A DNA stretch of 64,000 nucleotides from Collinsella sp. (GTDB lineage: Bacteria; Actinomycetota; Coriobacteriia; Coriobacteriales; Coriobacteriaceae). The translations under genes were made by a program, and so were the position numbers. Where the stretch lies: positions 13,050 through 77,049 of the forward strand of contig JAHAAK010000007.1 of the NCBI GenBank assembly GCA_018376905.1, read 5' to 3'. The notes under the pieces were generated by a model. That model worked only from the letters and a program-made list of their open reading frames with translations, searched no databases and was not told the origin of the DNA. Every line of letters starts with the position of its first letter. Position 1 is the first letter of the stretch. Below are positions 929 through 49,567 of this stretch, in pieces.

Positions 929-959
929 ATGTGACAAAGGGACAGTCCCTTTGTCACAT
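929..959. repeat. Dispersed 31-bp perfect palindrome (family A) ATGTGACAAAGGGACAGTCCCTTTGTCACAT, copy 1
   Basis: Perfect inverted repeat directly after the nitroreductase stop. The same element recurs at 14103, 24854, 26403 and 29904, degenerately at 30949, as an incomplete remnant at 39232 and as a degenerate variant at 49351. Confidence 0.85.
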
Positions 960-1083
960 TCCATATCGCCGAGGTGGCCTAAAGGCCGTATAAATGTTTA
1001 TTTAGCTGGGAAAACAGTGCATTAAAACATGGGCCGATTACCTATAATCCCTTCGAACATTAAAGTTGGGAGGAAACCGGCTT

Positions 1084-3111
1084 ATGGAACAAAAGGCCAA
1101 GGAGGCAGCCTCGCACGCTGCGATTCCTGTGAGCATCTCGGCGATGCTCGTCACGCTGGGCGTGGTGTACGGCGATATCGGCACCAGCCCTATGTATGTA
1201 ACCAAGGCGCTCGTCGCCGGCAACGGCGGCATCGGAAGCGTCACGGAGGAGTTCGTGCTCGGCGCGCTCTCCCTTGTCGTGTGGACGGTCACGTTGCTGA
1301 CCACCATCAAGTATGTGCTCATCTCGCTGCGCGCCGATAACCATGGTGAGGGCGGCATCTTTGCCCTGTACAGCCTGGTCAAGCGCTGCGGCAAGTGGCT
1401 TATCATCCCCGCCATGCTGGGTGGCGCCGCGCTTCTCGCCGACGGCATCCTGACGCCGGCCGTTACCGTTACCACGGCCATCGAGGGCCTGCGCACCATC
1501 CCGGCGGTCCATGCCGTGCTGGGCGATGACCAGGGTCGCGTCGTCGCCATTACGCTCGCCATCATCATCGCGCTTTTTTTGGTGCAGCGCATCGGTACGG
1601 CCAAGATCGGTCACGCCTTTGGCCCCATCATGACGCTGTGGTTCCTGTTCCTGGGCGGCACGGGTCTGTTCTTTGTCTTCCAGCACCCCGCCGTGCTGCT
1701 GTGCCTCAACCCGGTGCGCGGCATCGCCTTTTTGCTGAGCCCCAACAACCACGCGGGCATCATGATTCTGGGCAGCTGCTTCCTCGCCACCACCGGTGCC
1801 GAGGCGCTCTACTCCGACATGGGCCACGTCGGCCGCGGCAACATCTACGCTACTTGGCCGTTCGTTAAGTGCTGCCTGCTGCTTTCCTATATGGGCCAGG
1901 GCGCTTGGCTTATGAACAACGCTGCCAACCCCGAGCTCATGGGCATTGCCGACCTCAACCCGTTCTACCAGATGCTCGCCCCGGGCCTGCGCCCGTTTGC
2001 CGTCGGCCTTTCCACCGTCGCGGCCATCATTGCCTCGCAGGCGCTCATCACCGGCGCATTCTCGCTGGTGTCCGAGGCCAGCCGTCTGGACCTCATGCCG
2101 CACATGCAGGTCTTCTACCCTGCCGAGACCAAGGGCCAGCTCTACATCCCCATGGTCAACAACGTCATGCTTGTCGGCTGCGTCATCGTGGTGCTGCTGT
2201 TCCAGAACTCGGCGCATATGGAAGCCGCCTACGGCCTTGCCATTACGCTGACTATGATGTGCACCACGCTGCTGCTCTTCTTCTACCTGCACGAGGAGCG
2301 CAAGCTCAAGGTTGCTCCGTGGATCTTCGCGGCCTTCTTCCTTTTGCTCGAAGGCTTCTTCTTCGTGAGCTCACTTACCAAGTTCTTCCACGGCGGCTAC
2401 TTCACCATCCTCATGGCCGCGCTCATCATGGGCATCATGGTGTGCTGGTACAACGGTACGGCTGTTGAGCAGCGCCAGTTTACGCTGCTGCCGCTGCGCA
2501 GCTACCTGCCGCAGCTCAAGCGCCTGCGCGACGACGACCGTTACGAGCGCATGAGCGACAACGTCGTGTACCTGACCAAGGACACCCATACCGACTACAT
2601 CGACCGCGATATCGTCTATTCGATCTTGGACAAGCATCCCAAGCGCGCCCGCGCCTGGTGGTTTGTGAATGTCGAGACCATGGACGAACCGCACACCTTT
2701 GCCTATTCGGTCGAGACGTTCGGCACCGATTACGTGTTCCGCGTGCATCTGTACCTGGGCTACAAGATCAACCAGCGCGTCAATGCCTACCTGCGTCAGG
2801 TCGTTCAGGACCTGGCTGCCACCGGCGAGCTGCCGCCGCAGACGCATGACTACTCGGTCTACAAGGATCCGGGTAACATCGGCACGTTCAAGTTCGTCCT
2901 GATCCGTAAGCTTCTGGCGCCCGAAAGCGATGTGGAGCCGAGCGAGCGTACGGCCATCACGCTCAAGTACATCATCCGCCGCGCCGCCGGCACGCCTGCG
3001 CGTTGGTACGGCCTGGAGAACTCCAACGTGAGCTTTGAGTACGTGCCGCTGTTCACCAAGTTCAAGGCCGTGAACAAGATGCAGCGCCTGGCCCCCAACG
3101 AGCGGCCGTAG
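1084..3111 (+). CDS. kup: KUP/HAK/KT-family potassium uptake protein Kup
   Basis: Characteristic N-terminal motif LGVVYGDIGTSPMYV, 12 predicted TM segments and a cytoplasmic C-terminal domain. RBS GGGAGGA then ATG at 1084 (the ORF track's TTG at 1066 is less likely). TATAAT at 1044-1049 upstream. Confidence 0.9.
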   Translation: MEQKAKEAASHAAIPVSISAMLVTLGVVYGDIGTSPMYVTKALVAGNGGIGSVTEEFVLGALSLVVWTVTLLTTIKYVLISLRADNHGEGGIFALYSLVKRCGKWLIIPAMLGGAALLADGILTPAVTVTTAIEGLRTIPAVHAVLGDDQGRVVAITLAIIIALFLVQRIGTAKIGHAFGPIMTLWFLFLGGTGLFFVFQHPAVLLCLNPVRGIAFLLSPNNHAGIMILGSCFLATTGAEALYSDMGHVGRGNIYATWPFVKCCLLLSYMGQGAWLMNNAANPELMGIADLNPFYQMLAPGLRPFAVGLSTVAAIIASQALITGAFSLVSEASRLDLMPHMQVFYPAETKGQLYIPMVNNVMLVGCVIVVLLFQNSAHMEAAYGLAITLTMMCTTLLLFFYLHEERKLKVAPWIFAAFFLLLEGFFFVSSLTKFFHGGYFTILMAALIMGIMVCWYNGTAVEQRQFTLLPLRSYLPQLKRLRDDDRYERMSDNVVYLTKDTHTDYIDRDIVYSILDKHPKRARAWWFVNVETMDEPHTFAYSVETFGTDYVFRVHLYLGYKINQRVNAYLRQVVQDLAATGELPPQTHDYSVYKDPGNIGTFKFVLIRKLLAPESDVEPSERTAITLKYIIRRAAGTPARWYGLENSNVSFEYVPLFTKFKAVNKMQRLAPNERP

Positions 3112-3171
3112 ACGTCGGCGGCTACACGGAGTTGGTTTTTGATGGATAAGCATGAGGCCGGGGAGGTAAAC

Positions 3172-3366
3172 ATGGATACAAAGGCGCTCGATGGCCGTGA
3201 GGCGGTGGTCGAAATGGTGCGTGAGGCGCGCGTCGACGCCGCCGAAGATCGGTTCTTTACGAATCGTGCCAACATGGATATGGCCGATCGCGTAATTTCG
3301 ATCGTGGCACTGGTATTTGGAGCGGTGTGCGTGTGTGCCCTGCTCGCGCACGTGCTGTTTGTCTAG
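3172..3366 (+). CDS. Small hypothetical membrane protein (about 64 aa, one C-terminal TM helix)
   Basis: ATG at 3172 with strong RBS GGGGAGG. Hydrophobic C-terminus IVALVFGAVCVCALLAHVLFV. Sits between kup and the KdpD-like kinase. Confidence 0.35.
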   Translation: MDTKALDGREAVVEMVREARVDAAEDRFFTNRANMDMADRVISIVALVFGAVCVCALLAHVLFV

Positions 3367-3413
3367 CGACCGCAGGTTGCAAAGGCTATACACTTGGAAC
3401 CACCACAAGGGAA

Positions 3414-3458
3414 ACCACCACAAAGGTGCCTGTCCCTTTGTGGTGGTTTTTGTTTTTG
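3414..3458 (+). terminator. Rho-independent terminator
   Basis: Stem ACCACCACAAAGG / CCTTTGTGGTGGT followed by TTTTTGTTTTT. The core resembles the family-A palindrome (AAAGG..GTCCCTTTG). Confidence 0.7.
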
Positions 3459-3477
3459 AGAGAGGGGCGGGGCGCTG

Positions 3478-5103: not shown

Positions 5104-5105
5104 CG

Positions 5106-5821: not shown

Positions 5822-5845
5822 GTCGGCATCCGCCATCCCAATATG

Positions 5846-5911
5846 AGTTGCGGTGAAATAGTTCCTGTTTGGGCCTTTACCAGGCTTTTTAGGAACTATT
5901 CCACCGCAACT
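5846..5911. terminator. Long hairpin (21-bp stem) between convergent genes, bidirectional terminator candidate
   Basis: AGTTGCGGTGAAATAGTTCCT ... AGGAACTATTCCACCGCAACT, 20 of 21 paired. The loop contains GCCTTTACCAGGCTTTTT. Confidence 0.55.
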
Positions 5912-5915
5912 TTGT

Positions 5916-8483: not shown

Positions 8484-8558
8484 GGGTGACCTCTCTGGTT
8501 GCGTCGCTTCATTATATGATGGATGCTTCGTTTGCCCTTATCCTCGAAAGGAACCCAT

Positions 8559-9386: not shown

Positions 9387-9579
9387 TGAATCCCGCGTTC
9401 TGACGTTTGCTCGAACTGCGACTTTCTGCTTTTGCATGCTCAATCGATTTATCGATCCAAACACTGAGGTGTTTATACCGTTCGCCGAGAAGATAAAAAC
9501 CCGCAGCTCACGCCTTGATAAACATAGGTAAAGTGTTTAGCAGTTTATCGGCCGTGTGCAAACGAAAGGAATCAGGCAG

Positions 9580-10437: not shown

Positions 10438-10523
10438 CAGGCAAAGGTACCCCCTTTAGCGACGTGCAAAATTGAGAGTATTCAGCAGGGTAAAGGCTTT
10501 TACCAGTTGATTGAAGCACGGAA

Positions 10524-14102: not shown

Positions 14103-14133
14103 ATGCGACAAAGGGGCTGTCCCTTTGTCGCAT
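14103..14133. repeat. Family-A palindrome variant ATGCGACAAAGGGGCTGTCCCTTTGTCGCAT
   Basis: Perfect palindrome between the Gfo stop and the MFS stop. A variant of the 929 copy with compensated changes in both arms. Confidence 0.8.
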
Positions 14134-14141
14134 CGGTAAAA

Positions 14142-15398
14142 CTAGGCGGACTTCTTCTTGCTGTCGGAGACCATCATGTAGACGGTGAGCACGACGGCGA
14201 TGGCGGCGATCACAATAGCGCCGTAGAAGGACTGCTGGTAGGCGGCGCTGCCGGCCTCGGCGTGATACAGCACGGCGGTGATGGGCTGGCTGATCCAGGT
14301 GGAAGCGGCGTAGCCCAAAAACATGATGCCGTAGTTGACGCCGATGTTGCTGGTGCCGAAGGCGCCACCGGTGAGCGGCGGGTAGATGACGAGCAGGGCG
14401 CCAAAGCTAAAGCCGAGCAGGGCGAGCGCCACAAAGAACATGCCCTGCGTAAAGCTCATCGACATGATGACGAGTGCGACGATGGTGACGACAAGGCTGA
14501 TGAGCAGCGACTTATAGGCGCCGAGCTTGTCGATGATCTGGCCAAAGGACAGACGGCCAACCAGGTTGGCGCAGGTGTTGACGGAGACCACCACACCGCC
14601 GAGGGCGACGGCCGCGGCGCTCGTGGGGTCGGCGAAGAGCTGGACGGCGGCGATGGAGGCAACCTTGCCCACGAGCAGGGTGCCCGCGGTGGCGGCAAAG
14701 GCGAAGGTGACGATGAGGACCCAGAAGCGCGGGGTCTTGACCATCTCGCCCGGGGTGAGGTCGCCGAAGGTGCCGGCATGCGCGCCGCCCTTGGGGGCCT
14801 CGAAGCCCTCGGGCAGCCAACCGGCCTCGGGGGCCTTCAGGAACAGGGCGGAGGCGGCGATCATCACAAAGAAGATGACGCCGAGCGCCTTAAGGGCGCC
14901 AAAGATGCCCAGGCTCGGGATGAGCAGCGAGGCGAGCACTGGGGACAGCACGGCGGGGCCGGCGGTTGAAGCGGCCAGGGTGATGCCGGAGGCGAGGCCC
15001 TTCTTGTCGATGAACCACTTTTGGCCGGTGGTGAGCGCCGGGTTGTAGCCCAGGCCGTTGCCGATGGCGGCGACGAGCGAGAACCACAGGTAGAACTGCC
15101 ACGGCTCGGTGACGGTGCCGGACATGAACCAGCCCACGCCGTAGCACACGGCGGCGGCGATCACGACGTTGCGCGGGCCGATCTTATCGGAGATGCGGCC
15201 GGCGAAGATGCCCGTCACAGCCATGATGGTCTGAAAGACCGGGAAGGCCCAGGTAAGAGCGCTGGACCACTCGGGGTAGACGGCGAGCAGGTTCTTGCTC
15301 ACGACGGAATACAGCGCGATGGAGCTGATGAAGAACATGGTGACGCACGCGGCGGAAAGCACGACGGCGCGACCCTTGTTGGAGTTGGTGGAAGCCAT
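14142..15398 (-). CDS. MFS transporter, oxalate/formate antiporter (OFA)-like family
   Basis: 418 aa with 12 TM segments and an OFA-type N-terminus. Confidence 0.75.
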   Translation of the reverse strand: MASTNSNKGRAVVLSAACVTMFFISSIALYSVVSKNLLAVYPEWSSALTWAFPVFQTIMAVTGIFAGRISDKIGPRNVVIAAAVCYGVGWFMSGTVTEPWQFYLWFSLVAAIGNGLGYNPALTTGQKWFIDKKGLASGITLAASTAGPAVLSPVLASLLIPSLGIFGALKALGVIFFVMIAASALFLKAPEAGWLPEGFEAPKGGAHAGTFGDLTPGEMVKTPRFWVLIVTFAFAATAGTLLVGKVASIAAVQLFADPTSAAAVALGGVVVSVNTCANLVGRLSFGQIIDKLGAYKSLLISLVVTIVALVIMSMSFTQGMFFVALALLGFSFGALLVIYPPLTGGAFGTSNIGVNYGIMFLGYAASTWISQPITAVLYHAEAGSAAYQQSFYGAIVIAAIAVVLTVYMMVSDSKKKSA

Positions 15399-24853: not shown

Positions 24854-24886
24854 AATGTGACAAAGGGACAGTCCCTTTGTCACATT
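24854..24886. repeat. Family-A palindrome copy
   Basis: AATGTGACAAAGGGACAGTCCCTTTGTCACATT, perfect. Confidence 0.85.
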
Positions 24887-24927
24887 CGCCGGGGCTGCCC
24901 CTTCTTTTTGCTTATAATCCTAAATCT

Positions 24928-25004
24928 CTGCATTTCATCCGATTTTAGGTTCTAAAAATCCTACATTTCATCGATAATTAAGCGCATAAAACTTTGCATT
25001 TCAT
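24928..25004 (+). promoter_or_regulatory. Three direct repeats YTRCATTTCAT at 33-bp period in an AT-rich segment just upstream of DUF4143 ATPase paralog 1
   Basis: CTGCATTTCAT at 24928, CTACATTTCAT at 24961, TTGCATTTCAT at 24994. TATAAT at 24913. Confidence 0.6.
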
Positions 25005-25028
25005 TTGATGACACTGAGGGGAGAGCCT

Positions 25029-26390
25029 ATGCTGCGCAGGAAAATAGCGGCAGAGCTGGAGCGTTGGCTGAAGTCTGCCGAGCAAAAGGCCTTATTCATC
25101 ACGGGTTCTCGCCAGATCGGCAAAAGCTATTCGATTCGCGCATTTGGCAAAGCCAGCCATGCAACCTACATCGAGCTCAATCTCATGGAAAATCGCCAGG
25201 CAAAAGATGCTCTTCTCGAGGCGCGGAATGCCGATGATTTCATCAGCAGGGTGACGCTTCTTTCGGGAAAGTCGATTGCACCAGGCAAAACGCTCGTGTT
25301 TATCGATGAGGTCCAAGAGGCCCCCGACATCATGACGATGGCAAAGTTCCTTGTAGAGGACGGGAGGTGCCGCTGGGCGTTTTCGGGGTCAATGCTCGGG
25401 ACCCAGTTCAAGGGCGTCAGGTCCTATCCCGTGGGGTATGTCCACGAGCTTAGGATGTTCCCGCTCGATTTTGAGGAGTTTTGCTGGGCAACCGGGGTGA
25501 GCGAGGGGGCTCGCCAAACGATACGTGACGCGTGTATCAGCGAGAGGCCCATTCCTGATTACATTCATGACGCGATGATGGCAAACTTCAGGACCTATAC
25601 CGTTGTCGGCGGAATGCCGGAGGTCGTGCAGCGTTTCCTTGACACGCAGGGCGACCTTGCCTCTGTTCGTCAGCTGCAGTCAGAGCTCAACGAACAGTAC
25701 CGGCGGGATATCTCCAAGTATGCAAGCGGGCGAGCCCTGCAGGTGCAGAGCATCTACGATCAGCTCCCTATTATGCTCGAGGGCGAAAACAAGCGCTTCG
25801 TGCTCAATTCCATTGACCCCAAGGCTCACTACGAGAAGTATCAGCGAGATTTTGTATGGCTTGTCGATGCCGGCGTTGCTCTCAAAGCCGATATCGTAAC
25901 CGAGCCAAAATCGCCCCTGCTCAAGACGGCACGGCCATCGCAGTTCAAGCTATATCAATCGGATACGGGCATGTTGATGGCGCGCTACCCCGTTGGAGTC
26001 GCCCAAGCGGCGTATCTTGATAGCAAAGAGCCCAATCTGGGCGGCATTTACGAAAACGTGGTGGCCCAGCAGCTAGCTGCCCAAAATCGCCAGCTTTACT
26101 ACTATCAGACAAAAAAGCGCGGCGAAGTGGACTTTGTGGTCGATGGACCGGATGGGACGGCTGTTCCGATCGAGGTTAAATCGGGCTCCTATTACCACGC
26201 GCACGCTGCGCTCGGTCATGTGCTTGATACGGCTGAATATGGCGTAAGGCTCGGGATTGTTTTCTCGAGAGGCAACGTTGAGCGCAACGGAGCGGTTCTC
26301 TATTTGCCGCTATATGCGACCTGGGCCCTTTCGGATGTTTTGGGCGACTCCTGCGCCGAGGGGATAAAGCTGGAGGTCAAGCCGGTCTAG
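25029..26390 (+). CDS. AAA+ ATPase (COG1373, AAA_14) with a C-terminal DUF4143 domain (PD-(D/E)xK-like), paralog 1
   Basis: Walker A GSRQIGKS and Walker B LVFIDEVQ. C-terminal EVDFVVD...PIEVKSG. Start at MLRRK (RBS GAGGGGAGAG), which aligns with the paralog N-termini. GC content is lower than in the flanking genes. Confidence 0.8.
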   Translation: MLRRKIAAELERWLKSAEQKALFITGSRQIGKSYSIRAFGKASHATYIELNLMENRQAKDALLEARNADDFISRVTLLSGKSIAPGKTLVFIDEVQEAPDIMTMAKFLVEDGRCRWAFSGSMLGTQFKGVRSYPVGYVHELRMFPLDFEEFCWATGVSEGARQTIRDACISERPIPDYIHDAMMANFRTYTVVGGMPEVVQRFLDTQGDLASVRQLQSELNEQYRRDISKYASGRALQVQSIYDQLPIMLEGENKRFVLNSIDPKAHYEKYQRDFVWLVDAGVALKADIVTEPKSPLLKTARPSQFKLYQSDTGMLMARYPVGVAQAAYLDSKEPNLGGIYENVVAQQLAAQNRQLYYYQTKKRGEVDFVVDGPDGTAVPIEVKSGSYYHAHAALGHVLDTAEYGVRLGIVFSRGNVERNGAVLYLPLYATWALSDVLGDSCAEGIKLEVKPV

Positions 26391-26402
26391 GGCCAGTCCC
26401 GG

Positions 26403-26433
26403 ATGTGGCAAAGGGGCAGTCCCTTTGTCACAT
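26403..26433. repeat. Family-A palindrome variant ATGTGGCAAAGGGGCAGTCCCTTTGTCACAT
   Basis: Directly after the ATPase paralog 1 stop. Confidence 0.8.
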
Positions 26434-26436: not shown

Positions 26437-26500
26437 TGAGCGTGGATTTTCTCCCGTTTAGAGCGCACTCGAGCGCTCAAAGTGGGAGAAAATCCACGCT
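26437..26500. repeat. Palindromic element B (about 64 bp), copy 1
   Basis: GAGCGTGGATTTTCTCCCGTTT ... AAAGTGGGAGAAAATCCACGCTC. A second copy lies at 33029-33092. Confidence 0.75.
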
Positions 26501-26546
26501 CGTTTTATGCCGATGGCGTGGCACGTGCGTCCGCGTGCTCGCTTGC

Positions 26547-28397: not shown

Positions 28398-28413
28398 GGG
28401 GCCGCCTTTCCAA

Positions 28414-28505
28414 TTTCGTGTACTTCAGATACATAGTTTAGTACGATTTCATGTACTTGAAATACACGAAATAATAGAAAAGCGTGTATCTCAAATACAC
28501 GAAAT
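28414..28505 (-). promoter_or_regulatory. Three direct repeats (TTTCGTGTATTT-N-TACA type) at about 33-bp period immediately upstream of ATPase paralog 2
   Basis: Plus-strand cores TACTTCAGATACA (28421), TACTTGAAATACA (28455) and TATCTCAAATACA (28487). AT-rich. Confidence 0.6.
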
Positions 28506-39230: not shown

Positions 39231-39231
39231 A

Positions 39232-39246
39232 ATGTGACAAAGGGAC
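39232..39246. repeat. Family-A palindrome remnant ATGTGACAAAGGGAC (left arm plus centre only)
   Basis: Left arm ATGTGACAAAGG and centre GAC are intact; the right arm is missing (the sequence continues TGAGCCGATTT). Follows the M20 peptidase stop. Confidence 0.5.
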
Positions 39247-39526
39247 TGAGCCGATTTCATCGGTAATGAGACAAAAACTGTCATAGAAAAAGACTAAGAT
39301 ATCTTAAGAGACATATGCTGGGGTTGGTATTCCTTGAACGACTGCGGGCATGTGCCAGACTGCCTCGGCCCCCCGGGGAGTGCCCGGGCAGGTCGCCGTG
39401 TGACTGGGGAGGAAATTATGCAGGAGCTCAGAGAGATGACGTCTCGACTCGTGAATATTGCTACCGGGGGGGTGTCTAAGCAGGGAACTTCCTGGTAAAC
39501 ATCGGCCGCGCGAGCGGTGGTCCGTC

Positions 39527-42500
39527 ATGTCTTATGGCCGTCGCCGCGGGCTGTGCCCGGTCTCGCCATATGCGATTGTTCTGGTCCTCGCCGTCGCGCT
39601 GACGACGAGTTTCTTCCTGCCGGCCCGTGCGGAAGCGGCGATTGCGGACCACACGGTTCCGACGACCTCGCCCTCGGGGACGACGATCAACCTGTTTGAT
39701 TACTGGGTGAATTCGGAGGATCACCTGTCGGTCAGTGGATCCGACGGCATCAACAAGGATCACCGCTTCCAGTTCAAGGATCAGAGAGCCAGTGATGATC
39801 TCAATCGGTATACGGGCGGCTCCTCTCCTCGCTTCGGTATCGTGAACAACGTTCTTACCGGCGGTTACCCGAAACTCACCAACAGCTGGGATGGAGAATC
39901 CCTCGGCTACCTGTTTGATTCCTCCATCCAGACGGGCAAGATATCCCATATGGGTGTGACGGGTCTGTTGCAGGTCAAGGGCGGCTACTACGAGTATGAC
40001 AGCTCGCAGAACTACGCGGCGTACAACGCCAATAAGAATGCATTTGATGTATACGATGCCCCCGGCGTTAAGCAGGCGGGGGCTGAGCCTCATACAGTAG
40101 GCCAGTTCTTCCCCTTCGATGCGGCCAATGAGGTATTCAAGGAGGGGAGCAGCGGGCTCGTCCCGAACGGCATTACGTCGCAGAACGTCGGCGACTCGCA
40201 ATATAACGATGGCAATCCCCTCAACCATTATTTCGGCCTCTCAATGTCCACGCGATTCGTGCAGCCCAACGGCGGCCTGGCGAACGGTAAAGATGCCATG
40301 ACCTTTGAGTTCGCCGGCGATGATGACGTCTGGGTGTTCATCGACGATGTCCTCGTGGGCGACATTGGCGGCATCCACACCCGTGCTGAGCTGACCATTA
40401 ACTTCCAAACGGGCGAAATCACCGTTAACGGTTCCGCAAACGGCACGCTGCGGAGCAAGTTCCAGGCGGCAGGCAAGGGCGGCTCAGCCGAGAATTGGAA
40501 CAGCAATACCTTCGCCGACGGCACCAACCACACCCTCAAGTTCTTCTACCTGGAGCGCGGCGCCACCGACTCCAATATGAAGCTCAAGTTCAACCTCGTG
40601 ACGGTGCCCGAGTCCGACATCATCAAGTTCGACCAGGACGGCAAGTTCGTACAGGGTGCCGAGTTCAAGCTTTATAAGACCGACAAGGACTTCCAGACCG
40701 AGGGCAAGCTCCTCGGCTCCGGCACTACGGACGAGACCGGCCGCCTAACGCTCACGAACGACGATGACAACGGCGTCATCAACTTCGACGATCTCTACAA
40801 CAAGAATCACGGTAACAAGTACTACCTCCTGAAGGAGACGCGCGTGCCGGAGGGATACCGCTCGAGTCTCACGGCGACAGGTGGCAGCATGCAGCTCGAG
40901 TACGTGCCCGCGAGCGCTGAGAACGGCGCGGGCGGCGTCATCATCAACCGCGGCGGTATGGATGCGGACAGCGTCGTGTGGAAGACTGGTGCGTTTGCCG
41001 GCGCGAAGGAGACCATCACCGCACCGGTGAACGTGTACAAGGCGAATGATGACCTGATGAAGTCCGACGAGACCGTCAACCTGAAGTCTGGCATACTGTT
41101 CGCTGTGGTGCTCAAGCGCGATAAAAGCGCAAACGCAGATATCAAAAATCAGAACAATTGGTACGCCGTGTCGGGCGACCCATCGACGGGAATGGGGTAC
41201 ACCCTCGCCGAGAAGCCGAGCAAGGCCGGCGCTATCGAGGCGGCGAAGAAGGACCTGCACGCCTTCACGCTCAACACGAGCGGCCAGTACCAGGTAGAGA
41301 TTCAAAATCTGCCCGGTGACATCTCCAAGTACTACTACCTGCTGAGCGGTGATGCCCACAAGGATGCCGAGTACACGGTGGCCATCTACCACACAACGGA
41401 GAGCTCCATCGCCAACGCGAAGCCCGAGAACACCGTCCACGTGTACAGCGACGGCATCGCAGACGGCACGAACTTCAAGCGGCAGTTCGCCACGCGCCTG
41501 CTCGTCACGAACATCCAGAACCGCCTGTTCGTGCAGAAGACCGATACCGAGGGTAAGCCCGTTGACGGGGCGAAGTTCGGCCTGTACAAGGCCGATCAGG
41601 TGAAAATGGACGCGAACGGCAAGGTCATGCTCAATGGCGAGCAGACCCCCTTTGACACCCTGACGACGGGGTCGGTCGGCAACCCGGTTCCGCTCGAAGG
41701 TGCGGGCATATTCCCGAATACGAGCGACGGTAACAGGCCGCTCGTGAAGGGGACCTACTTCCTAAAGGAGGTCTCGGCGCCCAAGGGCTTCCTGCTTAAC
41801 GACACGCTCACCAAGGTGATTGTGGACGATTACGGCGTCCATGCCGATGCTGGTACGGCCGATGACGGCGTTTCGACGTTCGTGGGCCCGGGCGCGCTCA
41901 TGAAGAGCCTGGGCCAGTTTGGCGCAGAGGGCGACATCGACAACACGCTCACGTGGATCAAGGGTATGCGGCAGACGTCCGACGGGACGCTCGACGGCAA
42001 CGACAACCTTTCCTGGAACAATGACGCCAAGGGCGGCGAGGATGAGGTGCACCTCAAGTACGGCGCCAACGGACGTGTCTACCAGTATGGGCCCACCGAG
42101 GAAGGCAAACCTTATCGCTTGGAGACCGAGACGGGCTGGATACGTATGGGCATCACGCAGGACGTGCCTGGTGACACTAATGCGAAGGGCGCCCGTGCCA
42201 ATCTGGACGACATGAATTTGAACGCCCTGTTCACAGGTGCCACCTGCGTGCGCGTGGCGAACGAACGCGAGGCGAGCCTCGAGGTGACGAAGAAGGTTGC
42301 CCTGCCCGATGGCCTGACGGGCAATAAGGACGCGGAGTTCACCTTCAAGTTCACCGTGCCCGAGGGGAAGACCTACAAGGCTGCAGTGTTCAAGAACGCT
42401 GGGGCCGGAAAGCAAGCCGGCGACGTGTTCGATTTGAAGAACGGCGACACCCATGCTATCAAGGCCGACGAGACGATTCGCGTGTACGGTCTTGGCGAGG

Positions 42501-44650
42501 GCGACGAGTACGCGGTGCAGGAGCTGACCGGCGCAGACAAGATGCCCGCGGGCTATAAGCTGACCGGCCGCAAGCAGGGTACCACGAATCTGACCGGCGC
42601 AGGCGATAGTATCACCGGTGAGATCGAGAAGCAAAAACCCGACGGCACGTTGGCCGAAGCCAACAAGCTGGTGTTCACAAACACCTACAAGGCGGAAGCT
42701 AGCGACGAACTGACCCCGCAGGTAACGAAGAAGGTCTCCGGTGTTGAGAGCACGGAGAAGGCGTTCTCGTTCACGCTGACCGCCACGGAAGAGACGCAGA
42801 AGCAGATCGATGATGATGACCTCAAAGTCTCGGATGCTCTGGCGGGCAATGAGCATGCCGAGTCCAAGGCCACGAGTGGCAAGATCATCAAGGACAAGGG
42901 CCAGACGGTCGACTTCTCCGGCATGAAGTTCAACAAGGCCGGTACGTACACGTTCACGCTCACCGAGGCGCACGACGCCGACGACGACGCGGCGGTGGAC
43001 GGCGTGCAGAACTCCGGCTGGACGATGGACGCCTCGACCTATACCGTCACGGTGAGGGTCGAGGATAAGAACGCCAAGCTGACTGTCACAGGCGTGACGG
43101 TGGAGAAGAGCGGCGATGACAAGCGCGAGACGCTTGAGGTCAAGAACGGCAAGGTGAACCTCGCCACCTTCAACAACAGCTATGCTGCGAAGGGTTCCGT
43201 GACCCTGGCGGCGAAGAAGCAATTTACGGGCGGCACCCTTGAGAACCAGCAGTTCTCATTCCAGGTGAAGGAGGGCGATAAGGTTGTCGCCGAAGAAAAG
43301 AACGATGCCAATGGCGACATCACCTTCCCGGCCATTGATTACACCGAGGCTGGTGAGCACGACTACGCCATCAAGGAGGTCGAAGGCACCGACCCGACTA
43401 TCGTTTACGACGGCAAGACGGTGAAAGTGCGCGTTAGCGTCACCGATAACAAGAACGGCACGCTGAGCGCGACCGCCACCTACGACGGCAAGGCCGACGC
43501 TCCGACCTTCACCAACTCGAAGCCGACGGCCGACGCCACTATCGAGGCGACGAAGACCCTCAAGGGCAAGGACCTGACGGCTGGTGCGTTCACTTTCGGC
43601 CTATATCAAGGCGACACGACTACGGTTGATCCCATCCAGACTGTCCAGAACGACAAGGACGGCAAGATTAAGCTCATCCTCACCGGTCTGACCATAGGCG
43701 AGTACGACTACACGCTCAAGGAGGTCGCTGGCGGCGATTCGACCATCACCTACGATTCCGCGGCGGTGAAGGTCCACGTCTCGGTGAAGGCGGACGGTGA
43801 CAAGGCAAAGGCGACTGTCACCTATGACGACAAGAATGCCGCCCCGACCTTCACCAACAAGTACCAGCCTGCCGAGACCTCGGCTACACTCACGGCGAAG
43901 AAATCGTACGTGAAGTCCGACAACACGCCGATCGTACTCAAGGGCGGCGAGTTCACCTTCGATGTGTACGAGGGCAACCTGACGGCTGAGCAGCTGAAGG
44001 GCAAGCAGCCCATCCGGGCCGCTGAGAACGGCGAGGGCGGCACCGTCACCTTCCGGGTCATCAACTACACCAAGGCCGGCGAGTACAAATACACTATCGC
44101 GGAGCAGAAGGGCGACCTGTCCCACGTGACCTACGACGATACGGTGCACCACGCTGTGGTGAAGGTCGTGGACAACGCCGGGCAGCTGGAAGCGAGCGTC
44201 ACCTACGACGACGGCAAGACGGATGCCCCCACCTTCAAGAACACCTATACCGCAAAGGGATCCGCGGAGCTGACGGCGACCAAGGTCGTCGCGGTCGCGC
44301 CGGGCTTCACGCACGACACCACGCTGAGGGGCGGCGAGTACACGTTCGAGCTGAAGGACGCCGACGGCAAAGCGCTCGATACCATGAAGAACAAGGCCGA
44401 TGGCACGGTGAAGTTCACGCGCGACTTCAAGCTCTCCGACCTGGGCGGCGCCGCGAGCAAGGACTTCACCTACACCATCGTGGAGCAGCGGGGCGCGGAG
44501 CCGGGCATGGTCTACGACACCCATGCGCTCATCTACAAGGTGACGGTCGCGGACGATGGCGCCGGCGCGCTGACGGCCACACCGCAGGTCTCGAGTGGAG
44601 ACAACTCGCAGACCTTCACAACACGTACCACCCGAAGGAGACCTCGGTAA
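39527..44650 (+). CDS. Giant cell-wall-anchored adhesin, N-terminal reading frame: signal peptide, fibro-slime/PA14-like head domain, then tandem CnaB / isopeptide-type Ig-like domains
   Basis: Signal peptide MSYGRRRGLCPVSPYAIVLVLAVALTTSFFLPARAEA. Head motif FEFAGDDDVWVFIDDVLVGDIGGIH (fibro-slime/PA14-like). Repeated modules with TFTN.YxP linkers and EYDYTLKEV...TYD motifs. Frame ends at a 1-nt deletion near 44620. Confidence 0.8.
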   Translation: MSYGRRRGLCPVSPYAIVLVLAVALTTSFFLPARAEAAIADHTVPTTSPSGTTINLFDYWVNSEDHLSVSGSDGINKDHRFQFKDQRASDDLNRYTGGSSPRFGIVNNVLTGGYPKLTNSWDGESLGYLFDSSIQTGKISHMGVTGLLQVKGGYYEYDSSQNYAAYNANKNAFDVYDAPGVKQAGAEPHTVGQFFPFDAANEVFKEGSSGLVPNGITSQNVGDSQYNDGNPLNHYFGLSMSTRFVQPNGGLANGKDAMTFEFAGDDDVWVFIDDVLVGDIGGIHTRAELTINFQTGEITVNGSANGTLRSKFQAAGKGGSAENWNSNTFADGTNHTLKFFYLERGATDSNMKLKFNLVTVPESDIIKFDQDGKFVQGAEFKLYKTDKDFQTEGKLLGSGTTDETGRLTLTNDDDNGVINFDDLYNKNHGNKYYLLKETRVPEGYRSSLTATGGSMQLEYVPASAENGAGGVIINRGGMDADSVVWKTGAFAGAKETITAPVNVYKANDDLMKSDETVNLKSGILFAVVLKRDKSANADIKNQNNWYAVSGDPSTGMGYTLAEKPSKAGAIEAAKKDLHAFTLNTSGQYQVEIQNLPGDISKYYYLLSGDAHKDAEYTVAIYHTTESSIANAKPENTVHVYSDGIADGTNFKRQFATRLLVTNIQNRLFVQKTDTEGKPVDGAKFGLYKADQVKMDANGKVMLNGEQTPFDTLTTGSVGNPVPLEGAGIFPNTSDGNRPLVKGTYFLKEVSAPKGFLLNDTLTKVIVDDYGVHADAGTADDGVSTFVGPGALMKSLGQFGAEGDIDNTLTWIKGMRQTSDGTLDGNDNLSWNNDAKGGEDEVHLKYGANGRVYQYGPTEEGKPYRLETETGWIRMGITQDVPGDTNAKGARANLDDMNLNALFTGATCVRVANEREASLEVTKKVALPDGLTGNKDAEFTFKFTVPEGKTYKAAVFKNAGAGKQAGDVFDLKNGDTHAIKADETIRVYGLGEGDEYAVQELTGADKMPAGYKLTGRKQGTTNLTGAGDSITGEIEKQKPDGTLAEANKLVFTNTYKAEASDELTPQVTKKVSGVESTEKAFSFTLTATEETQKQIDDDDLKVSDALAGNEHAESKATSGKIIKDKGQTVDFSGMKFNKAGTYTFTLTEAHDADDDAAVDGVQNSGWTMDASTYTVTVRVEDKNAKLTVTGVTVEKSGDDKRETLEVKNGKVNLATFNNSYAAKGSVTLAAKKQFTGGTLENQQFSFQVKEGDKVVAEEKNDANGDITFPAIDYTEAGEHDYAIKEVEGTDPTIVYDGKTVKVRVSVTDNKNGTLSATATYDGKADAPTFTNSKPTADATIEATKTLKGKDLTAGAFTFGLYQGDTTTVDPIQTVQNDKDGKIKLILTGLTIGEYDYTLKEVAGGDSTITYDSAAVKVHVSVKADGDKAKATVTYDDKNAAPTFTNKYQPAETSATLTAKKSYVKSDNTPIVLKGGEFTFDVYEGNLTAEQLKGKQPIRAAENGEGGTVTFRVINYTKAGEYKYTIAEQKGDLSHVTYDDTVHHAVVKVVDNAGQLEASVTYDDGKTDAPTFKNTYTAKGSAELTATKVVAVAPGFTHDTTLRGGEYTFELKDADGKALDTMKNKADGTVKFTRDFKLSDLGGAASKDFTYTIVEQRGAEPGMVYDTHALIYKVTVADDGAGALTATPQVSSGDNSQTFTTRTTRRRPR

Positions 44651-44712
44651 CGCTCAAGGCGACGAAGCGCTTCACAGGTGGTGAGCTCGCAGGGAGCGAC
44701 TTCACGTTCCAG

Positions 44713-47700
44713 TTGCTCGACAAGGATGGCAACGTGATCCAGACCGTCCAGAATGACAAGGACGGCAAGGTCGCCTTCCAGGCAATCAGCTACGACACGC
44801 CGGGCGATCACGACTACACCATCAAGGAGGTTGCCGGCAACGACCCGACCGTCGTGTACGACACGAAGGACGTGAAGGTCCACATCAAGGTCTCCGATGA
44901 GAAGGGCGAGCTAAAGGCGACCGCCACCTACGACGGCGAGGTCGACGTTCCGACCTTCACCAACTCGAAGCCGACGACGGACGTTACCGTCGAGGCGACG
45001 AAGATCCTCACGGGCAAGGACCTGACGGCCGACGCGTTCACCTTCGGCCTGTACGACCAGGCCGGCAACGAGGTCGCCAAGGGCACCAACGACCGGGGCG
45101 GCAAGGTCGAGCTGGCCGTCAAGAACCTGAACCTGGGCGAGTACGACTACACGCTCAAGGAGGAGAAAGCCGGCCAGACCGTCGACGGCGTGGCCTACGA
45201 CGCCAAGGAAGTCAAGGTCCACGTCAAGGTAGAGCAGAACCAGGGCGACAACAACAAGACGAAGGTGACCGTCACCTATGACGGTGCCGCTACGGCTCCC
45301 ACCTTCAACAACACCTACGACGCAAAGGGTTCCGTAATCCTGACGGCGACCAAGACCATCAAGGTTGCGGACGGCTTCGACCACACGACGAAGCCCGCGG
45401 ACGGCGAGTTCACCTTCGACCTGAAGGACGCTGCCGGCAACGTGCTCGACACCGCGAAGAACGATGCAAACGGCAAGGTCAGCTTCACGCGCGAGTTCCA
45501 GCTCTCCGACTTGGACGGCGCCGCGAGCAAGGACTTCACCTACACCATCGTGGAACAGTCGGGCACGGAGCCGGGCATGGTCTACGATACCCATGCGCTC
45601 ACCTACAAAGTAACGGTTAAGGACGACGGGACGGGCACGCTGAACGCGAAGGCGATCGTTACGAGCACATCAGGCCCGGAGACCTTCACCAACAACTACC
45701 AGCCGGCCGCGACCGGTCTGGCTCTCGGTGCGCAGAAGAGGTACGTGAAGAAGGACGACAACACGCCGATCGTACTCAAGGGCGGCGAGTTCACCTTCGA
45801 TGTGTACGAGGGCAACCTGACGGCTGAGCAGCTTGCCGGGGCCAAGCCCGTCCGGACCGCGACCAACGGCGCGGACGGAAGTGTTAACTTCGACGCCTTC
45901 TCCTACGCGAAGCCGGGCACGCACGAGTACACCATCGTGGAGCGGAAGGGTGATCTGGCCTACGTGACCTACGACGCCGCGGTGCACCATGCCGTGGTGA
46001 CGGTTGCGGACAATGCCGGCACGCTGCAGGCGAGCGTCGCCTACGACGGCACGAATGTCACGAAGCCCAGCTTCACCAACACCTATGAGGCACAGGCGAC
46101 GGACTCCGGCGCGATCGCCCTCACCAAGAGCGTTGACGTGCACGACGGCAGCTATCAGCTAAAGGCGGGAGACTTCGCCTTCGAGCTGGTGGGGTCTGAC
46201 GGCTCGGTGATCCAGACCCAGAAGAACGATGCGCACGGCAAGGTTGCCTTCGACAAGCTGACCTTCGACCATGCGGGCACCTTTACCTACACGGTCCGCG
46301 AGGTGCAGCCGACGGGGGACGCGCCGGGCGTACCGGGCGTGACCTACACCGGCAAGACGTACACCCTGACCTACGTGGTGAAGGACAACAACGACGGCAA
46401 GCTGGTGGTAGAGAACTCCACGGTGAAGCCGAGCGAGGGCACCGAGAACGGCGTCACCCCCAACACCATGACGTTTGCGAACAGCTACCAGCCGGGCGCG
46501 ACCTCCTACCAGATCTCCGGCACCAAGGTGCTTGAGAATACCGATTCGGCCACCATGCGGACGCCCGCCGATGGCGAGTTCACGTTCGCGCTGATTGACG
46601 TGGCCACCGGGCAGGAGATCGACCGGACCACGAACGTGGGTAACGCGTTTACCTTCAAGGCCATCTCGTACACCGCGACTGGTTCGCATGCGTACCAGGT
46701 GAAGGAGGTTGCGGGCCAAGATGGCACCATCACTTACAGCGATGCGGTGTTGGATGTGACGGTGAGTGCGACCGACGACGGCAGCGGCCAGCTGACCGCG
46801 ACGGCGAACAAGACGGCCGCGGATCTGACCTTCACCAACACCTACACGCCGACGGCAACGACGGCGACGATTACCGGAACGAAGGCCCTGACCGGCCGCG
46901 ACCTGGCCGAGGGTGAGTTCTCCTTCGACCTGAAGGACGCCGACGGTAACGTGGTGCAGACGGTGCAGAACGGCGCCGACGGCACGTTCGGCTTCGCGCC
47001 GCTGCAGCTGGACAAGGTGGGGACGTACGTCTACACCGTGTCCGAGCAGGCAGGGGCGACGGCGAACGGCGTCACCTACGACACGACGGTCTTTACCGCG
47101 ATGGTGACGGTGACGGAGAATGCGGAGACGCACGCGCTGGAGGCGCAGGTTGCCTACAGCACGGGCGGCAAGGCTGCGGATGCGGTGACGTTCAGCAACA
47201 GCTACGCGCCGGCCGCGACTGAGGTGAAGCTGGGGGCTTCCAAGGTGCTGAGCGGTGAGGACCTGAAGGAAGGGCAGTTCTCCTTCCAGCTGAAGGATGC
47301 CGACGGCAAGGTGCTGCAGACCGCCAAGAATGCGGCGGACGGCACGGTGGGCTTCAAGGCGATCTCGTACGACAAGCCCGGGGCGTATCGCTACAGCATC
47401 TCCGAGGTGAACGACGCTCAGAAGAACGTGACGTACGACGCAGCCGAGCACCAGGTAACGGTGATGGTGACGGACGACGGCGCGGGCCATCTGGTGGCGA
47501 CGGTAACCTATGACGGTGACGTGGCGCCGGTGTTCAAGAACACGTACACGCCGCCGACCACCCCGCCGGTCAACCCGCCGACGGAGCCGCCCACCAACCC
47601 ACCGGTGTCGAAGGAGGAGAAGCCGGGTCTGCCGAACATGGGCGATACCAGCTTGTCGCCGATGGCCCTGGGTGGCATCGCGGGCGGCGCAGTGGTGCTG

Positions 47701-47739
47701 ATCGCCACAGGTGTGATCCTGCGGCGCCGGAACCGGTAG
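44713..47739 (+). CDS. Giant adhesin, C-terminal reading frame continuing the same domain array, with a cell-wall sorting signal
   Basis: Continues the tandem modules. C-terminus LPNMGDTS, then a hydrophobic helix, then RRRNR (LPXTG-like sorting signal). The frame is contiguous with the upstream fragment once one A is restored in ACAAAC near 44620. Confidence 0.8.
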   Translation: MLDKDGNVIQTVQNDKDGKVAFQAISYDTPGDHDYTIKEVAGNDPTVVYDTKDVKVHIKVSDEKGELKATATYDGEVDVPTFTNSKPTTDVTVEATKILTGKDLTADAFTFGLYDQAGNEVAKGTNDRGGKVELAVKNLNLGEYDYTLKEEKAGQTVDGVAYDAKEVKVHVKVEQNQGDNNKTKVTVTYDGAATAPTFNNTYDAKGSVILTATKTIKVADGFDHTTKPADGEFTFDLKDAAGNVLDTAKNDANGKVSFTREFQLSDLDGAASKDFTYTIVEQSGTEPGMVYDTHALTYKVTVKDDGTGTLNAKAIVTSTSGPETFTNNYQPAATGLALGAQKRYVKKDDNTPIVLKGGEFTFDVYEGNLTAEQLAGAKPVRTATNGADGSVNFDAFSYAKPGTHEYTIVERKGDLAYVTYDAAVHHAVVTVADNAGTLQASVAYDGTNVTKPSFTNTYEAQATDSGAIALTKSVDVHDGSYQLKAGDFAFELVGSDGSVIQTQKNDAHGKVAFDKLTFDHAGTFTYTVREVQPTGDAPGVPGVTYTGKTYTLTYVVKDNNDGKLVVENSTVKPSEGTENGVTPNTMTFANSYQPGATSYQISGTKVLENTDSATMRTPADGEFTFALIDVATGQEIDRTTNVGNAFTFKAISYTATGSHAYQVKEVAGQDGTITYSDAVLDVTVSATDDGSGQLTATANKTAADLTFTNTYTPTATTATITGTKALTGRDLAEGEFSFDLKDADGNVVQTVQNGADGTFGFAPLQLDKVGTYVYTVSEQAGATANGVTYDTTVFTAMVTVTENAETHALEAQVAYSTGGKAADAVTFSNSYAPAATEVKLGASKVLSGEDLKEGQFSFQLKDADGKVLQTAKNAADGTVGFKAISYDKPGAYRYSISEVNDAQKNVTYDAAEHQVTVMVTDDGAGHLVATVTYDGDVAPVFKNTYTPPTTPPVNPPTEPPTNPPVSKEEKPGLPNMGDTSLSPMALGGIAGGAVVLIATGVILRRRNR

Positions 47740-47885
47740 CTGCGGCGGCCGAGAAGGGCTTTGATTGAGGGCGGGTGGTCGCAGGGCGCGGCCGCCCGTC
47801 CTTTTCGGTGAAAGGCTATGTTAGCCCGCCGTTTGCACGCGATTATGATTCTGCAGCTCCTAAGCGCGCCGCGCCCTCTAGAAGT

Positions 47886-47995
47886 CCGGAAAAGCTGCAC
47901 GAAGCGGCTATCTTGACCCGGAAAAGCTGCAAATCTAGGCCAAATACACCCGGAAAAGCTGCAAAAGTTGGTAAAATCCATCCTGAAAAGCTGCA
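47886..47995 (+). promoter_or_regulatory. Four direct repeats CC(G/T)GAAAAGCTGCA at exact 32-bp period immediately upstream of ATPase paralog 3
   Basis: Copies at 47886, 47918, 47950 and 47982. Confidence 0.65.
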
Positions 47996-48010
47996 AACAG
48001 CAGGTGAAGG

Positions 48011-49336
48011 ATGGTGCGTAGTGTGCTGAAGCGAAAGATGCTCGACACCCTCCGTTCGTGGCGGGCGGAAAAGGGCGCCGAATGCCTTCTCATCAAGGGC
48101 GCGCGACAGGTTGGCAAGTCGTACATAGTCGCCGAGTTCGGGCGGCAGGACTACGAAAGCTTCATCTCCATAGACTTCATTGGGTCCCCGGACCTTAAGC
48201 GGGTGTTCGATGGCCCAATCGATGCCGACTCGATCTACCGGCAGATATCGCTCGTCGTGCCCGGCGTGCGCTTTGTTCCAGGACGAACGCTTCTTTTCCT
48301 CGACGAGATTCAGGAGTGCCCGCGTGCTCGCGCTGCGCTTAAGTATCTCGCTCTCGACGGCAGGTGCGATGTCGTTGCGTCGGGCTCGCTTCTGGGCATT
48401 CGGTTCAAGGAGGAGGCTGCGCTCGCCTCCATTCCCGTTGGGTACGAGCGAGAGGTCGAAATGGGCCCCCTCGATTTCGAGGAGTACCTTTGGGCGCGCG
48501 GGTATGGGGAGGACGATATCGCCAATTTGCGGGAATACTATGAGTCGTTGATGCCCGTGCCCGTTGCGGTGAATCAGAAGATGATGCAGATGCTGCGCGA
48601 GTACCTCGCGGTCGGCGGTATGCCTGCGGTGGTGGACGCCTTTGCGCGGACGGGCAACTTCGCCGTTGCTTTCGACGAGCAAAGCAGGCTGCTCGCCTCG
48701 TATCTCGACGACGTGGCTCGATACGCGCAAGCCCCCGAGCGCGTGCGTGCGCGGGCGTGCTTTGAATCGTTGCCGCGCCAGCTCGCAAAGGAGAATACGA
48801 AGTTCCAATATTCCGTGGTCGAGAACAGGGGAACGGCGCGCAAATTTGGTTCGTCCGTGGATTGGCTCGTGGGAGCAGGTATGGTGCGACGGTGCCAGTC
48901 GGTGAGCGCCGCCCAATTCCCTCTTGCCGCCTATGAAAATGGGACGAAGTTTCGCCTCTATGCCGCCGATACGGGCGTGCTCATGGCCATGTACGGCTTT
49001 GAAATGCTGGAAGCGGTGGTGAACAACAAGCTCGCGGGTCCCATGAAAGGCGGCCTCTACGAGAACCTGGTCGCCTGCATGCTTTCGGCGCGGGGTGTGG
49101 CTCTGCGTTATTGGCGGTCGCAGAAGGGCGATAGGGAAATAGAGTTTCTCGTCGACTCGCCCGACGCGAGCGTTGTGCCCATTGAAGTGAAGGCCTCGCG
49201 CGGATCTACGGTATCGCTCAACGACATGCTCGAGCGGCAGGACGTGAACCTTGGGTACAAGCTGATAGACGGTAACGTCGGCCGAGACGGCAAAAAGGTG
49301 ACGCTTCCGCTATATATGGCCATGTTCTTGAAGTAG
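48011..49336 (+). CDS. AAA+ ATPase (COG1373) with DUF4143 / PD-(D/E)xK-like domain, paralog 3
   Basis: GARQVGKSY, LLFLDEIQ, and C-terminal REIEFLVD...PIEVKASR. Confidence 0.8.
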   Translation: MVRSVLKRKMLDTLRSWRAEKGAECLLIKGARQVGKSYIVAEFGRQDYESFISIDFIGSPDLKRVFDGPIDADSIYRQISLVVPGVRFVPGRTLLFLDEIQECPRARAALKYLALDGRCDVVASGSLLGIRFKEEAALASIPVGYEREVEMGPLDFEEYLWARGYGEDDIANLREYYESLMPVPVAVNQKMMQMLREYLAVGGMPAVVDAFARTGNFAVAFDEQSRLLASYLDDVARYAQAPERVRARACFESLPRQLAKENTKFQYSVVENRGTARKFGSSVDWLVGAGMVRRCQSVSAAQFPLAAYENGTKFRLYAADTGVLMAMYGFEMLEAVVNNKLAGPMKGGLYENLVACMLSARGVALRYWRSQKGDREIEFLVDSPDASVVPIEVKASRGSTVSLNDMLERQDVNLGYKLIDGNVGRDGKKVTLPLYMAMFLK

Positions 49337-49567
49337 AGCCTTGCGTTGGCGGACTGACCCTTTGTCACATTCCGTGCGGGTTATATGCAGGTTTGCCTGC
49401 GCACGCTATCATGTATGGGTTAGACCACAACTATGTACCCCATACGCGAAGGGATGCGCATGTATCTGAAGATCGACATGTTCTAGCCGGGCTTACCCCC
49501 GCAGCGGCGCCGCGCGCCCCATCAATTCTGCCGATTTTCACCTTCACGCATATAAAGGAGTTCCGCC

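Follow-up and report, generated by a model that had tools for sequence, protein, structure and literature searches.

The stretch analyzed here, hereafter the window, comprises 64,000 nucleotides from Collinsella sp., a common human gut actinobacterium (contig JAHAAK010000007.1, positions 13,050 to 77,049), and its genes are interspersed with copies of a short palindrome, referred to as family A. Five full and three partial copies of (A)ATGTGACAAAGGGAC-N-GTCCCTTTGTCACAT(T) are present, where the chance expectation is zero:

929-959, no strand: full perfect palindrome, 11 nt past the stop of a nitroreductase-like gene (69-917) and upstream of kup
14103-14133, no strand: full copy of the ATGCGAC…GTCGCAT variant, with one compensated pair and one G·T, 8 nt past the stop of an MFS transporter gene (14142-15398, minus strand); the next start is 30 nt on
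24855-24885, no strand: full perfect copy, 9 nt past the stop of a TIGR04076 gene, at the left border of an ATPase segment
26403-26433, no strand: full copy with two mismatches in one arm, 12 nt past the ATPase stop, convergent
29904-29934, no strand: full copy with one mismatch, between the divergent starts of an MFS gene (minus strand) and a Nudix gene (plus strand), at the left border of the Nudix segment
30949-30976, no strand: degenerate copy with a shortened left arm (ATGTAAAAAGAC), which includes the TAA stop of the Nudix gene
39232-39248, no strand: left half (positions 1-17) of a split palindrome, 1 nt past the TAG stop of an M20 peptidase gene
49351-49370, no strand: right half (positions 12-31, with T18A) of the split palindrome

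A search with the 31-mer pattern, allowing up to three mismatches, returned the full copies at 929, 14103, 24855, 26403 and 29904, and none of 100 dinucleotide-preserving shuffles of the window yielded any such match. The same five were recovered by an nhmmer profile built from 146 family members, which placed the partial copies at 30958-30977, 39231-39248 and 49351-49372 and gave one weak further match (3421-3441, E 0.32) inside a terminator at 3414. The copies listed by the first-pass annotation were thereby reproduced, with nothing missed and nothing invented. One start required correction i.e., the 31-mer given at 24854 begins at 24855, the extra A at 24854 belonging to a 33-bp palindrome (24854-24886, counting the flanking A/T). 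No Rfam family matched the window.

The repeated unit measures 31-33 bp and consists of two 15-nt arms about one free base, without a conserved flank or coding capacity. In 129 aligned instances, conservation was limited exactly to (A)ATGT…ACAT(T), the flanks were random, the central base varied freely (A 62, T 50, G 11, C 6), and the column composition held no T-run after the stem on either side. As conservation ends at the palindrome edges and no T-run follows, the unit is the palindrome alone, rather than a miniature inverted-repeat transposable element (MITE) or a hairpin-plus-T-tract terminator; a MITE has internal sequence between its terminal inverted repeats and a target-site duplication, and family A has neither. 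Folded as RNA, full copies form a 12-15-bp stem (12-14 bp within the palindrome) with a 3-5-nt loop on either strand, at -23 to -25 kcal/mol (z -4.4 to -6.1), or at -15 kcal/mol (z -2.9) for the copy at 29904 with its arm mismatch. As DNA, the palindrome reaches -14.3 kcal/mol.

Across 146 distinct sequences, 93.8% of the stem cells were paired. As the inner stem was fixed by the search pattern, compensation can be judged only at the innermost pair and the four outer ones; on that footing 73 stem cells were changed on both sides, compared with 23.5 in shuffles, a value that none of 500 shuffles reached. The signal was lost when the partner column was slid by 1-3. A single orthologous site 3' of the M20 peptidase gene carries ATGTGAC…GTCACAT, ATCCGAC…GTCGGAT or ATCTGAC…GTCAGAT, depending on the strain. 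Compensated changes in the 146 sequences and in these alleles keep the pairing, and thus bear out the earlier proposal that the stem is under selection. Of the two arm changes cited for it in the 14103 copy, T4C with A28G is truly compensated, whereas the other leaves a G·T pair. Whether hairpins ending in TGTGAC…GTCACA make up a broader class was also considered; the idea was set aside, as just one further case was found, at 37747-37790. This is a 44-bp hairpin between the ABC ATPase and M20 peptidase genes, with family-like outer arms (ATGTGGCA…TCGTCACAAT) and a different, G+C-rich core; one compared stretch, L123, has a family-A-like palindrome at its position.

The distribution of the family was determined by scanning 185,579 species genomes with GACAAAGGGNCNGNCCCTTTGTC, a query that selects for the inner core. 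At least 120 stretches matched. Compared stretches are labelled by L numbers, and many of the loci are orthologous, hence not independent. Nearly all of the matches are from Collinsella, with a few from Olsenella, Tractidigestivibacter, Paratractidigestivibacter and other Atopobiaceae. Collinsella (Coriobacteriaceae) and Tractidigestivibacter (Atopobiaceae) represent two families of one order, Coriobacteriales. Clustering of the flanks reduced 174 instances to at least 39 distinct sites, whose flanks are unrelated and which come from numerous Collinsella genomes as well as from Atopobiaceae; this confirms a dispersed family rather than a local duplication. Proteins of the window were identical to those of Collinsella-type assemblies sharing its gene order. 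In Atopobiaceae, the symmetric variant ATGAGAC…GTCTCAT (T4A/A28T) was found at 9/9 sites. A lineage-wide symmetric variant at non-orthologous sites would be expected of a family copied or homogenized within each lineage, and not of independent terminators. No orthologous sites common to Atopobiaceae and Collinsella were found, in a sample far too small to inform on this point. Among 2.9 million viral contigs there was a single match, which sits within host flank, and a phage origin or att site was rejected.

Two matching contigs, L009 and L043, are labelled as Acutalibacteraceae and Ruminococcus metagenome-assembled genome bins. Given their G+C content of 0.61 and their Collinsella palindrome sites, they are probably mis-binned, being Collinsella-like by composition and site clustering. 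A Dethiothermospora halolimnae isolate (Firmicutes, G+C 0.31) holds a single 37-bp perfect palindrome with the same core, AACCTGGGACAAAGGGACAGTCCCTTTGTCCCAGGTT (L020 3270-3320).

The reuse of one sequence in hairpins downstream of genes, conserved within a clade, is also what would be seen if DNA uptake sequences were arranged as inverted pairs, as are those of Neisseria (DUS) or Haemophilus (uptake signal sequences, USS). Lone half-sites of uptake sequences, however, occur about once per kb, whereas single 15-nt arms of family A are rare and are truncation products, the density is one copy per 8-25 kb, and there was no evidence of competence. We regard this explanation as very improbable.

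To place the copies relative to genes, sites were classified using crude gene calls based on G+C at third codon positions. The 39 distinct sites included 23 in tandem, nine convergent and two divergent contexts and one within an open reading frame (ORF), and 31/32 classified sites were extragenic. Twenty-two of the 32 classifiable sites lay within 13 nt of a stop codon, compared with 8.8 expected under uniform placement in the same intergenic space, and none of 100,000 placement simulations reached 22. The stop was nearer than the next start in 15/22 tandem sites, and often the stop codon is the TGA of the palindrome's own ATGTGA, or of ATGAGA in Atopobiaceae. The bias toward intergenic 3' ends had been correctly recognized. 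That all window copies lie 3' of stops holds for those at 929, 14103, 24855, 26403, 30949 and 39232, but not for that at 29904, which stands between the divergent MFS and Nudix starts; the stop seen beside it is part of a spurious ORF. Placement between convergent genes, described as frequent, is limited in the window to the copy at 26403.

Each copy presents an outward-facing -35-like hexamer, TTGTCA, on both sides. At 29926-29954, the hexamer of the right arm and a TATAGT 17 nt downstream constitute a sigma-70-type promoter match (10/12) facing the NUDIX gene.

A stable hairpin on both strands, adjoining stop codons, could simply be a bidirectional factor-independent terminator whose common sequence is incidental or inherited, and the first-pass annotation had suggested bidirectional termination as one role. 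Like intrinsic terminators, family A forms a G+C-containing hairpin just downstream of genes. Moreover, a classical terminator in the window resembles it:

3414-3457, plus strand: canonical hairpin and T-tract terminator, whose stem has CACAAAGG…GTCCCTTTGTG in common with the family

This terminator shares an 11-nt core with the palindrome, as previously noted, and may be a derivative of the family. A further point in favor of termination is that, between the M20 peptidase gene and prfA, some strains (L154, L157) have a different hairpin in place of the palindrome. The consensus, however, has no T-tract on either side and a terminator scan flagged no copy, while canonical hairpin-plus-T-run elements exist separately, two of them within 5 nt of copies (26438-26505 after 26403 and 30982-31048 after 30949). 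The sequence itself is also conserved, i.e., a 15-nt arm is maintained over two families with lineage-wide symmetric variants, for which a terminator has no need, and 2/32 sites have divergent starts on either side. Selection on the hairpin within the mRNA of the preceding gene should make G·U pairs exceed A·C pairs among one-sided transitions in the mRNA sense. This was not so (27 versus 19 events, no significant bias in a small sample), and strand-specific RNA selection was rejected. Canonical termination by the palindromes appears unlikely from these features, and we give the terminator explanation as a whole only a small chance of being correct.

Two of the separate hairpins recur or are themselves interrupted. 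A 64-bp hairpin (GAGCGTGGAT..TCTCCCGTTT.GAGC…GCTCAAAGTGGGAGA..ATCCACGCTC) followed by a T-run occurs at 26438-26501, directly after the palindrome at 26403, and at 33029-33092, after an aldose epimerase gene; this second repeat family looks like a shared canonical terminator. Hairpin B (CCGTCACAACATTCGA…TCGAATGTTGTGACGG plus TTTT, 30982-31048) directly follows the palindrome at 30949, and in L131 (7400-8950) its loop holds an IS256-type insertion sequence (IS) with an 8-bp duplication, AAAAACGT.

The absence of strand bias in the type of mismatch is compatible with selection on the duplex, e.g., for sites of a dimeric DNA-binding protein such as a nucleoid-associated or topological factor or a global regulator. 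The perfect dyad, and a sequence conserved across genera beyond what pairing demands, speak for such sites, and there is a precedent in the repetitive extragenic palindromes (REPs) and bacterial interspersed mosaic elements (BIMEs) of E. coli, which bind IHF, gyrase and DNA polymerase I. However, as the copies are located at 3' ends, with nine sites convergent, they are not operators; the arm changes from GTG/CAC to CCG/CGG keep pairing yet alter the sequence that a protein reads; and no candidate protein was identified. We consider it improbable that protein binding alone explains the family.

Copies coincide with borders of strain-variable DNA. The partial copies at 39232 and 49351, which had been taken for two separate decayed copies, actually belong to a single palindrome, which a 10.1-kb insertion has cut in two:

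39249-49350, plus strand: 10.1-kb island at the palindrome centre, with two FctA/SpaA adhesin genes and an AAA_14/DUF4143 ATPase gene

In island-free strains, the M20 peptidase gene lies directly before prfA, and its TAG stop is followed by an intact palindrome and then by CCGTGCGGGTTATATGC. The arms of this empty site in L152 and L158 equal those of the window, and the flank after the right half at 49351 is identical to the empty-site flank. The window junctions read …AAAGGGACTG|AGCC…10.1 kb…GGCGGACTGA|CCCTTTGTCACATT CCGTGCGG, with GGACTGA at both. The left junction is common to all island carriers (the window, L125, L126, L141, L153, L156, L159 and L161), which speaks for a single, old insertion; adhesin length varies across carriers, from 771 to 3461 aa. 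The right end varies: the window has the ATPase gene there, and L125/L126 have a different ORF together with an IS256 element. In the latter, the right junction seems to keep positions 8-31, so that the junction overlap may be ~10 bp rather than 7. Alternatively, the island may formerly have lain between two full copies, each of which has lost an arm. At the same site in L071 (880-972) and L122-L124 (9711-9803), one palindrome arm is interrupted by a 56-bp palindromic element (TAGTCGTTGGGGACGTTC…GAACGTCCCCAACGACTA), which elsewhere is itself hit by an IS110 element (L121 3790-5290).

Other accessory DNA is bracketed by two copies, including two segments of the window:

24886-26402, plus strand: segment between two copies, with a leader containing iteron-like repeats and an AAA_14/DUF4143 ATPase gene (25029-26390)
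29935-30948, plus strand: segment between two copies, with a PAC_bac/NUDIX gene (30007-30954)

The Nudix segment is missing from L121, L122, L128, L129 and L131-L139, which have a single palindrome there. Similarly, L010 carries a 5.9-kb NUDIX…UbiD-UbiX-MerR block between two copies, where other strains have one. In L123, an ATPase gene between MerR and the next gene is bracketed by copies, and in L127 only its leader is left between two copies. A site adjacent to dus holds inserts of 1.3, 3.0 or 4.9 kb depending on the strain, and non-coding blocks of 0.4 and 0.75 kb are also bracketed. Overall, bracketed segments span ~0.3 to 5.9 kb where other strains carry a single copy, and remnants consisting of one arm also exist. 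Copies are otherwise single, and pairs occur only around intervening segments of at least 95 bp. The contents are ordinary accessory genes, e.g., for LysR, aldo-keto reductase, flavodoxin and membrane proteins. Nested deletions that shortened longer arrays account for these patterns no less well than insertions do.

Such segments raise the alternative that the palindromes are core sites of a dedicated site-specific recombination system, akin to lox, dif or attC, with ~12-bp arms and a ~7-bp centre at which cassettes and islands are inserted and excised. The simple tyrosine-recombinase sites loxP, FRT and dif have a 12+7+12 layout, which the palindrome fits. The island at the centre with GGACTGA at both junctions, the truncated copies that begin at positions 10-13 at three sites, the many two-copy accessory segments and the one site with different inserts by strain are all in keeping with this alternative, as are the AAA_14/DUF4143 genes bracketed or bordered by copies in 4/6 paralogous loci. 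However, no recombinase was found among the bracketed segments or in the island, or beside any of them, and the same cassette was never seen at two loci. A symmetric site should permit inversion, yet 0 inverted adjacencies were seen between copy pairs compared with 612 in the same orientation. The deletion junction of L121 still carries the variant right arm of the left copy, and this crossover was hence not central. The L125/L126 junction, with an overlap of maybe ~10 bp or two flanking copies each minus one arm, does not sit easily with a 7-bp centre, and the length polymorphism described below lacks a significant excess. We consider this alternative doubtful, and about as improbable as that of protein-binding sites. 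If it were true, cassettes and islands would be inserted and excised at many chromosomal positions in Coriobacteriales.

A related proposal, likewise improbable in our view, is a dispersed integron-like system, with a recombinase encoded elsewhere, which would cut in the ~7-bp centre between two 12-bp arms, and 'gene + palindrome' cassettes (AAA_14/DUF4143 ATPases, Nudix, small metabolic operons) at many positions. In integrons (attC) and at Acinetobacter pdif sites, a palindromic site directly follows the stop of an accessory gene, and segments lie between two sites. Family A resembles these in having a site after the stop and two-site segments where other strains have one. It nevertheless has no cassette array, R/L boxes or dif consensus, no integrase was seen near its copies, and no cassette movement between loci was seen. 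An integron attC has an IntI integrase nearby and is a 57-141-bp imperfect palindrome with R''/L''/L'/R' boxes, whereas family A consists of dispersed 31-bp perfect palindromes.

Candidate partner enzymes were sought by tblastn across 1.26 Mb of loci, using IS200 TnpA and XerD queries. Two matches resulted, an ordinary IS200 lying 5.9 kb away from a copy and, in a viral contig, a prophage integrase; neither a REP-associated tyrosine transposase (RAYT) nor a tyrosine recombinase near copies could be put forward on this basis.

The AAA_14/DUF4143 ATPases were also considered as the partner enzyme and rejected. There are three such genes in the window, one bracketed, one abutting a split half and one without a nearby copy. 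Among further paralogues, that of L123 is bracketed, that of L032/L087 has a copy upstream, and one beside sbcCD has none. Such a gene is present at only 15/120 palindrome loci. Wherever the exact ATPase protein occurs, its gene context is the same, and cassette hopping was rejected on this ground. The leader of every AAA_14/DUF4143 gene contains three or four iteron-like repeats that differ from the palindrome and are paralogue-specific in sequence, e.g., TGCATTTCAT, CCGGAAAAGCTGCA and CTTATAAACTTGCAAAAT. These leaders lie at:

24886-25028, 28398-28591 and 47870-48010 of the window
1622-1777 of L123
7537-7660 of L032
2330-2500 of L144

Given that each paralogue has its own upstream repeats and a single context, the ATPase genes are read as frequent accessory cargo and not as the enzyme. 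The repeats suggest sequence-specific self-regulation or DNA recognition by this uncharacterized family.

The idea that the palindromes are targets of IS elements holds in part. The 10-kb island and the 56-bp palindromic element are inserted in copies, but the IS110 (window, L121, L133) and IS256 (L131) elements sit in other hairpin families, and IS targeting of the palindrome family was therefore rejected. The IS110-family element of the window (33130-34659; transposase 33231-34397, minus strand, DEDD_Tnp_IS110 and Transposase_20) has inserted into the left arm of a longer palindromic element, now present as two halves (33110-33129 and 34659-34722); other strains have ~250 bp here. Downstream of prmC (52606-53846, compared with L121-L130), toxin-antitoxin pairs differ between strains, with Gp49 and a helix-turn-helix (HTH) protein in the window and HicA/HicB elsewhere. 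No family-A palindrome borders this region.

Taken together, we somewhat favor the view that family A is a repeat maintained at the DNA level, which forms a 3'-UTR (untranslated region) hairpin and a recombination-prone site; it would be a REP-like element of Coriobacteriales and not a canonical terminator. Its persistence could be explained if the sequence were recognized, copied or homogenized as DNA, in hairpin or cruciform form, by a trans-acting factor encoded elsewhere, by analogy with RAYT. Once it is part of a transcript's 3' UTR, the hairpin (-24 kcal/mol) would stop 3' exonucleases and influence how strongly the gene before it is expressed, as E. coli REPs do. As DNA, a perfect palindrome would be prone to breakage and short-homology recombination, and both the insertion at a centre and the loss of DNA between two copies would be explained by this. 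A role in the 3' UTR, as an exonuclease barrier or through interference with the terminating ribosome, is plausible but unproven. For E. coli REPs, a hairpin within 15 nt of the stop reportedly interferes with the terminating ribosome.

The closest known kind is REP/BIME of Enterobacteria and the REPIN-RAYT system of Pseudomonas (REPINs being REP doublets forming hairpins). These have in common with family A short extragenic palindromes in dispersed copies, in 3' UTRs and between operon genes, as well as stable hairpins without a T-tract and lineage-specific sequence types. REPs are short (about 20-40 nt) palindromic non-coding hairpins, and family A, with its 31-bp unit, 14-bp stem and -24 kcal/mol, falls within that description. 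REPs are also known as hot spots for insertion and rearrangement (PMC1525189). Family A is distinguished by its actinobacterial host (Coriobacteriales) and by an unusually tight coupling to stop codons.

A second analogue is found in Neisseria, where short inverted repeats (dRS3) surround variable intergenic blocks in Neisseria intergenic mosaic elements (NIMEs) and serve as foreign-DNA insertion sites and rearrangement breakpoints. The 20-bp dRS3 repeats are recognized by a prophage-encoded IS110/Piv-type enzyme. The likeness lies in the bracketing of variable blocks; family A differs in having no such enzyme linked to it, and the IS110 elements seen target other hairpins.

Several observations weigh against the REP-like interpretation. 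REPs of Proteobacteria are imperfect and paired or clustered, whereas family A is a single perfect 31-bp palindrome; they bear a GTAG-type 5' motif, whereas family A starts with (A)ATGT and has no conserved flank. REPs depend on RAYT transposases and a single-copy RAYT gene is flanked by the repeats, but the 1.26 Mb of loci contained no RAYT-like match and no Y1/RAYT gene or tyrosine recombinase next to any copy. Insertion of the bare 31 bp into a site unaltered in other respects was not cleanly seen at any locus; the changes seen were all allele replacements. Length polymorphism of at least 100 bp occurred at 7/27 palindrome sites compared with 13/103 control 3'-of-stop sites, a ~2-fold excess that is not significant (chi-square about 2.9), so that the term 'hot spot' is a suggestion here and not a result. 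Finally, the figure of ~100-250 copies per genome is an extrapolation from density only and not a count.

No description of this repeat was found in Rfam or in the literature searched, and the family, which we file as a REP-like kind, appears to be previously undescribed. To our knowledge, work on REP-like families has dealt almost exclusively with Proteobacteria. The presence of such a family across Coriobacteriaceae and Atopobiaceae, with symmetric lineage variants and no RAYT in sight, raises the question of how repeats of this type are propagated in Gram-positive lineages. That the copies are so closely tied to stop codons suggests that they influence how the upstream gene is expressed. 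In practical terms, the palindrome sites help to spot mis-binned contigs and, as copies mark the borders of strain-variable DNA, including adhesin islands and AAA_14/DUF4143 genes, they would be useful for pangenome analysis and strain typing.

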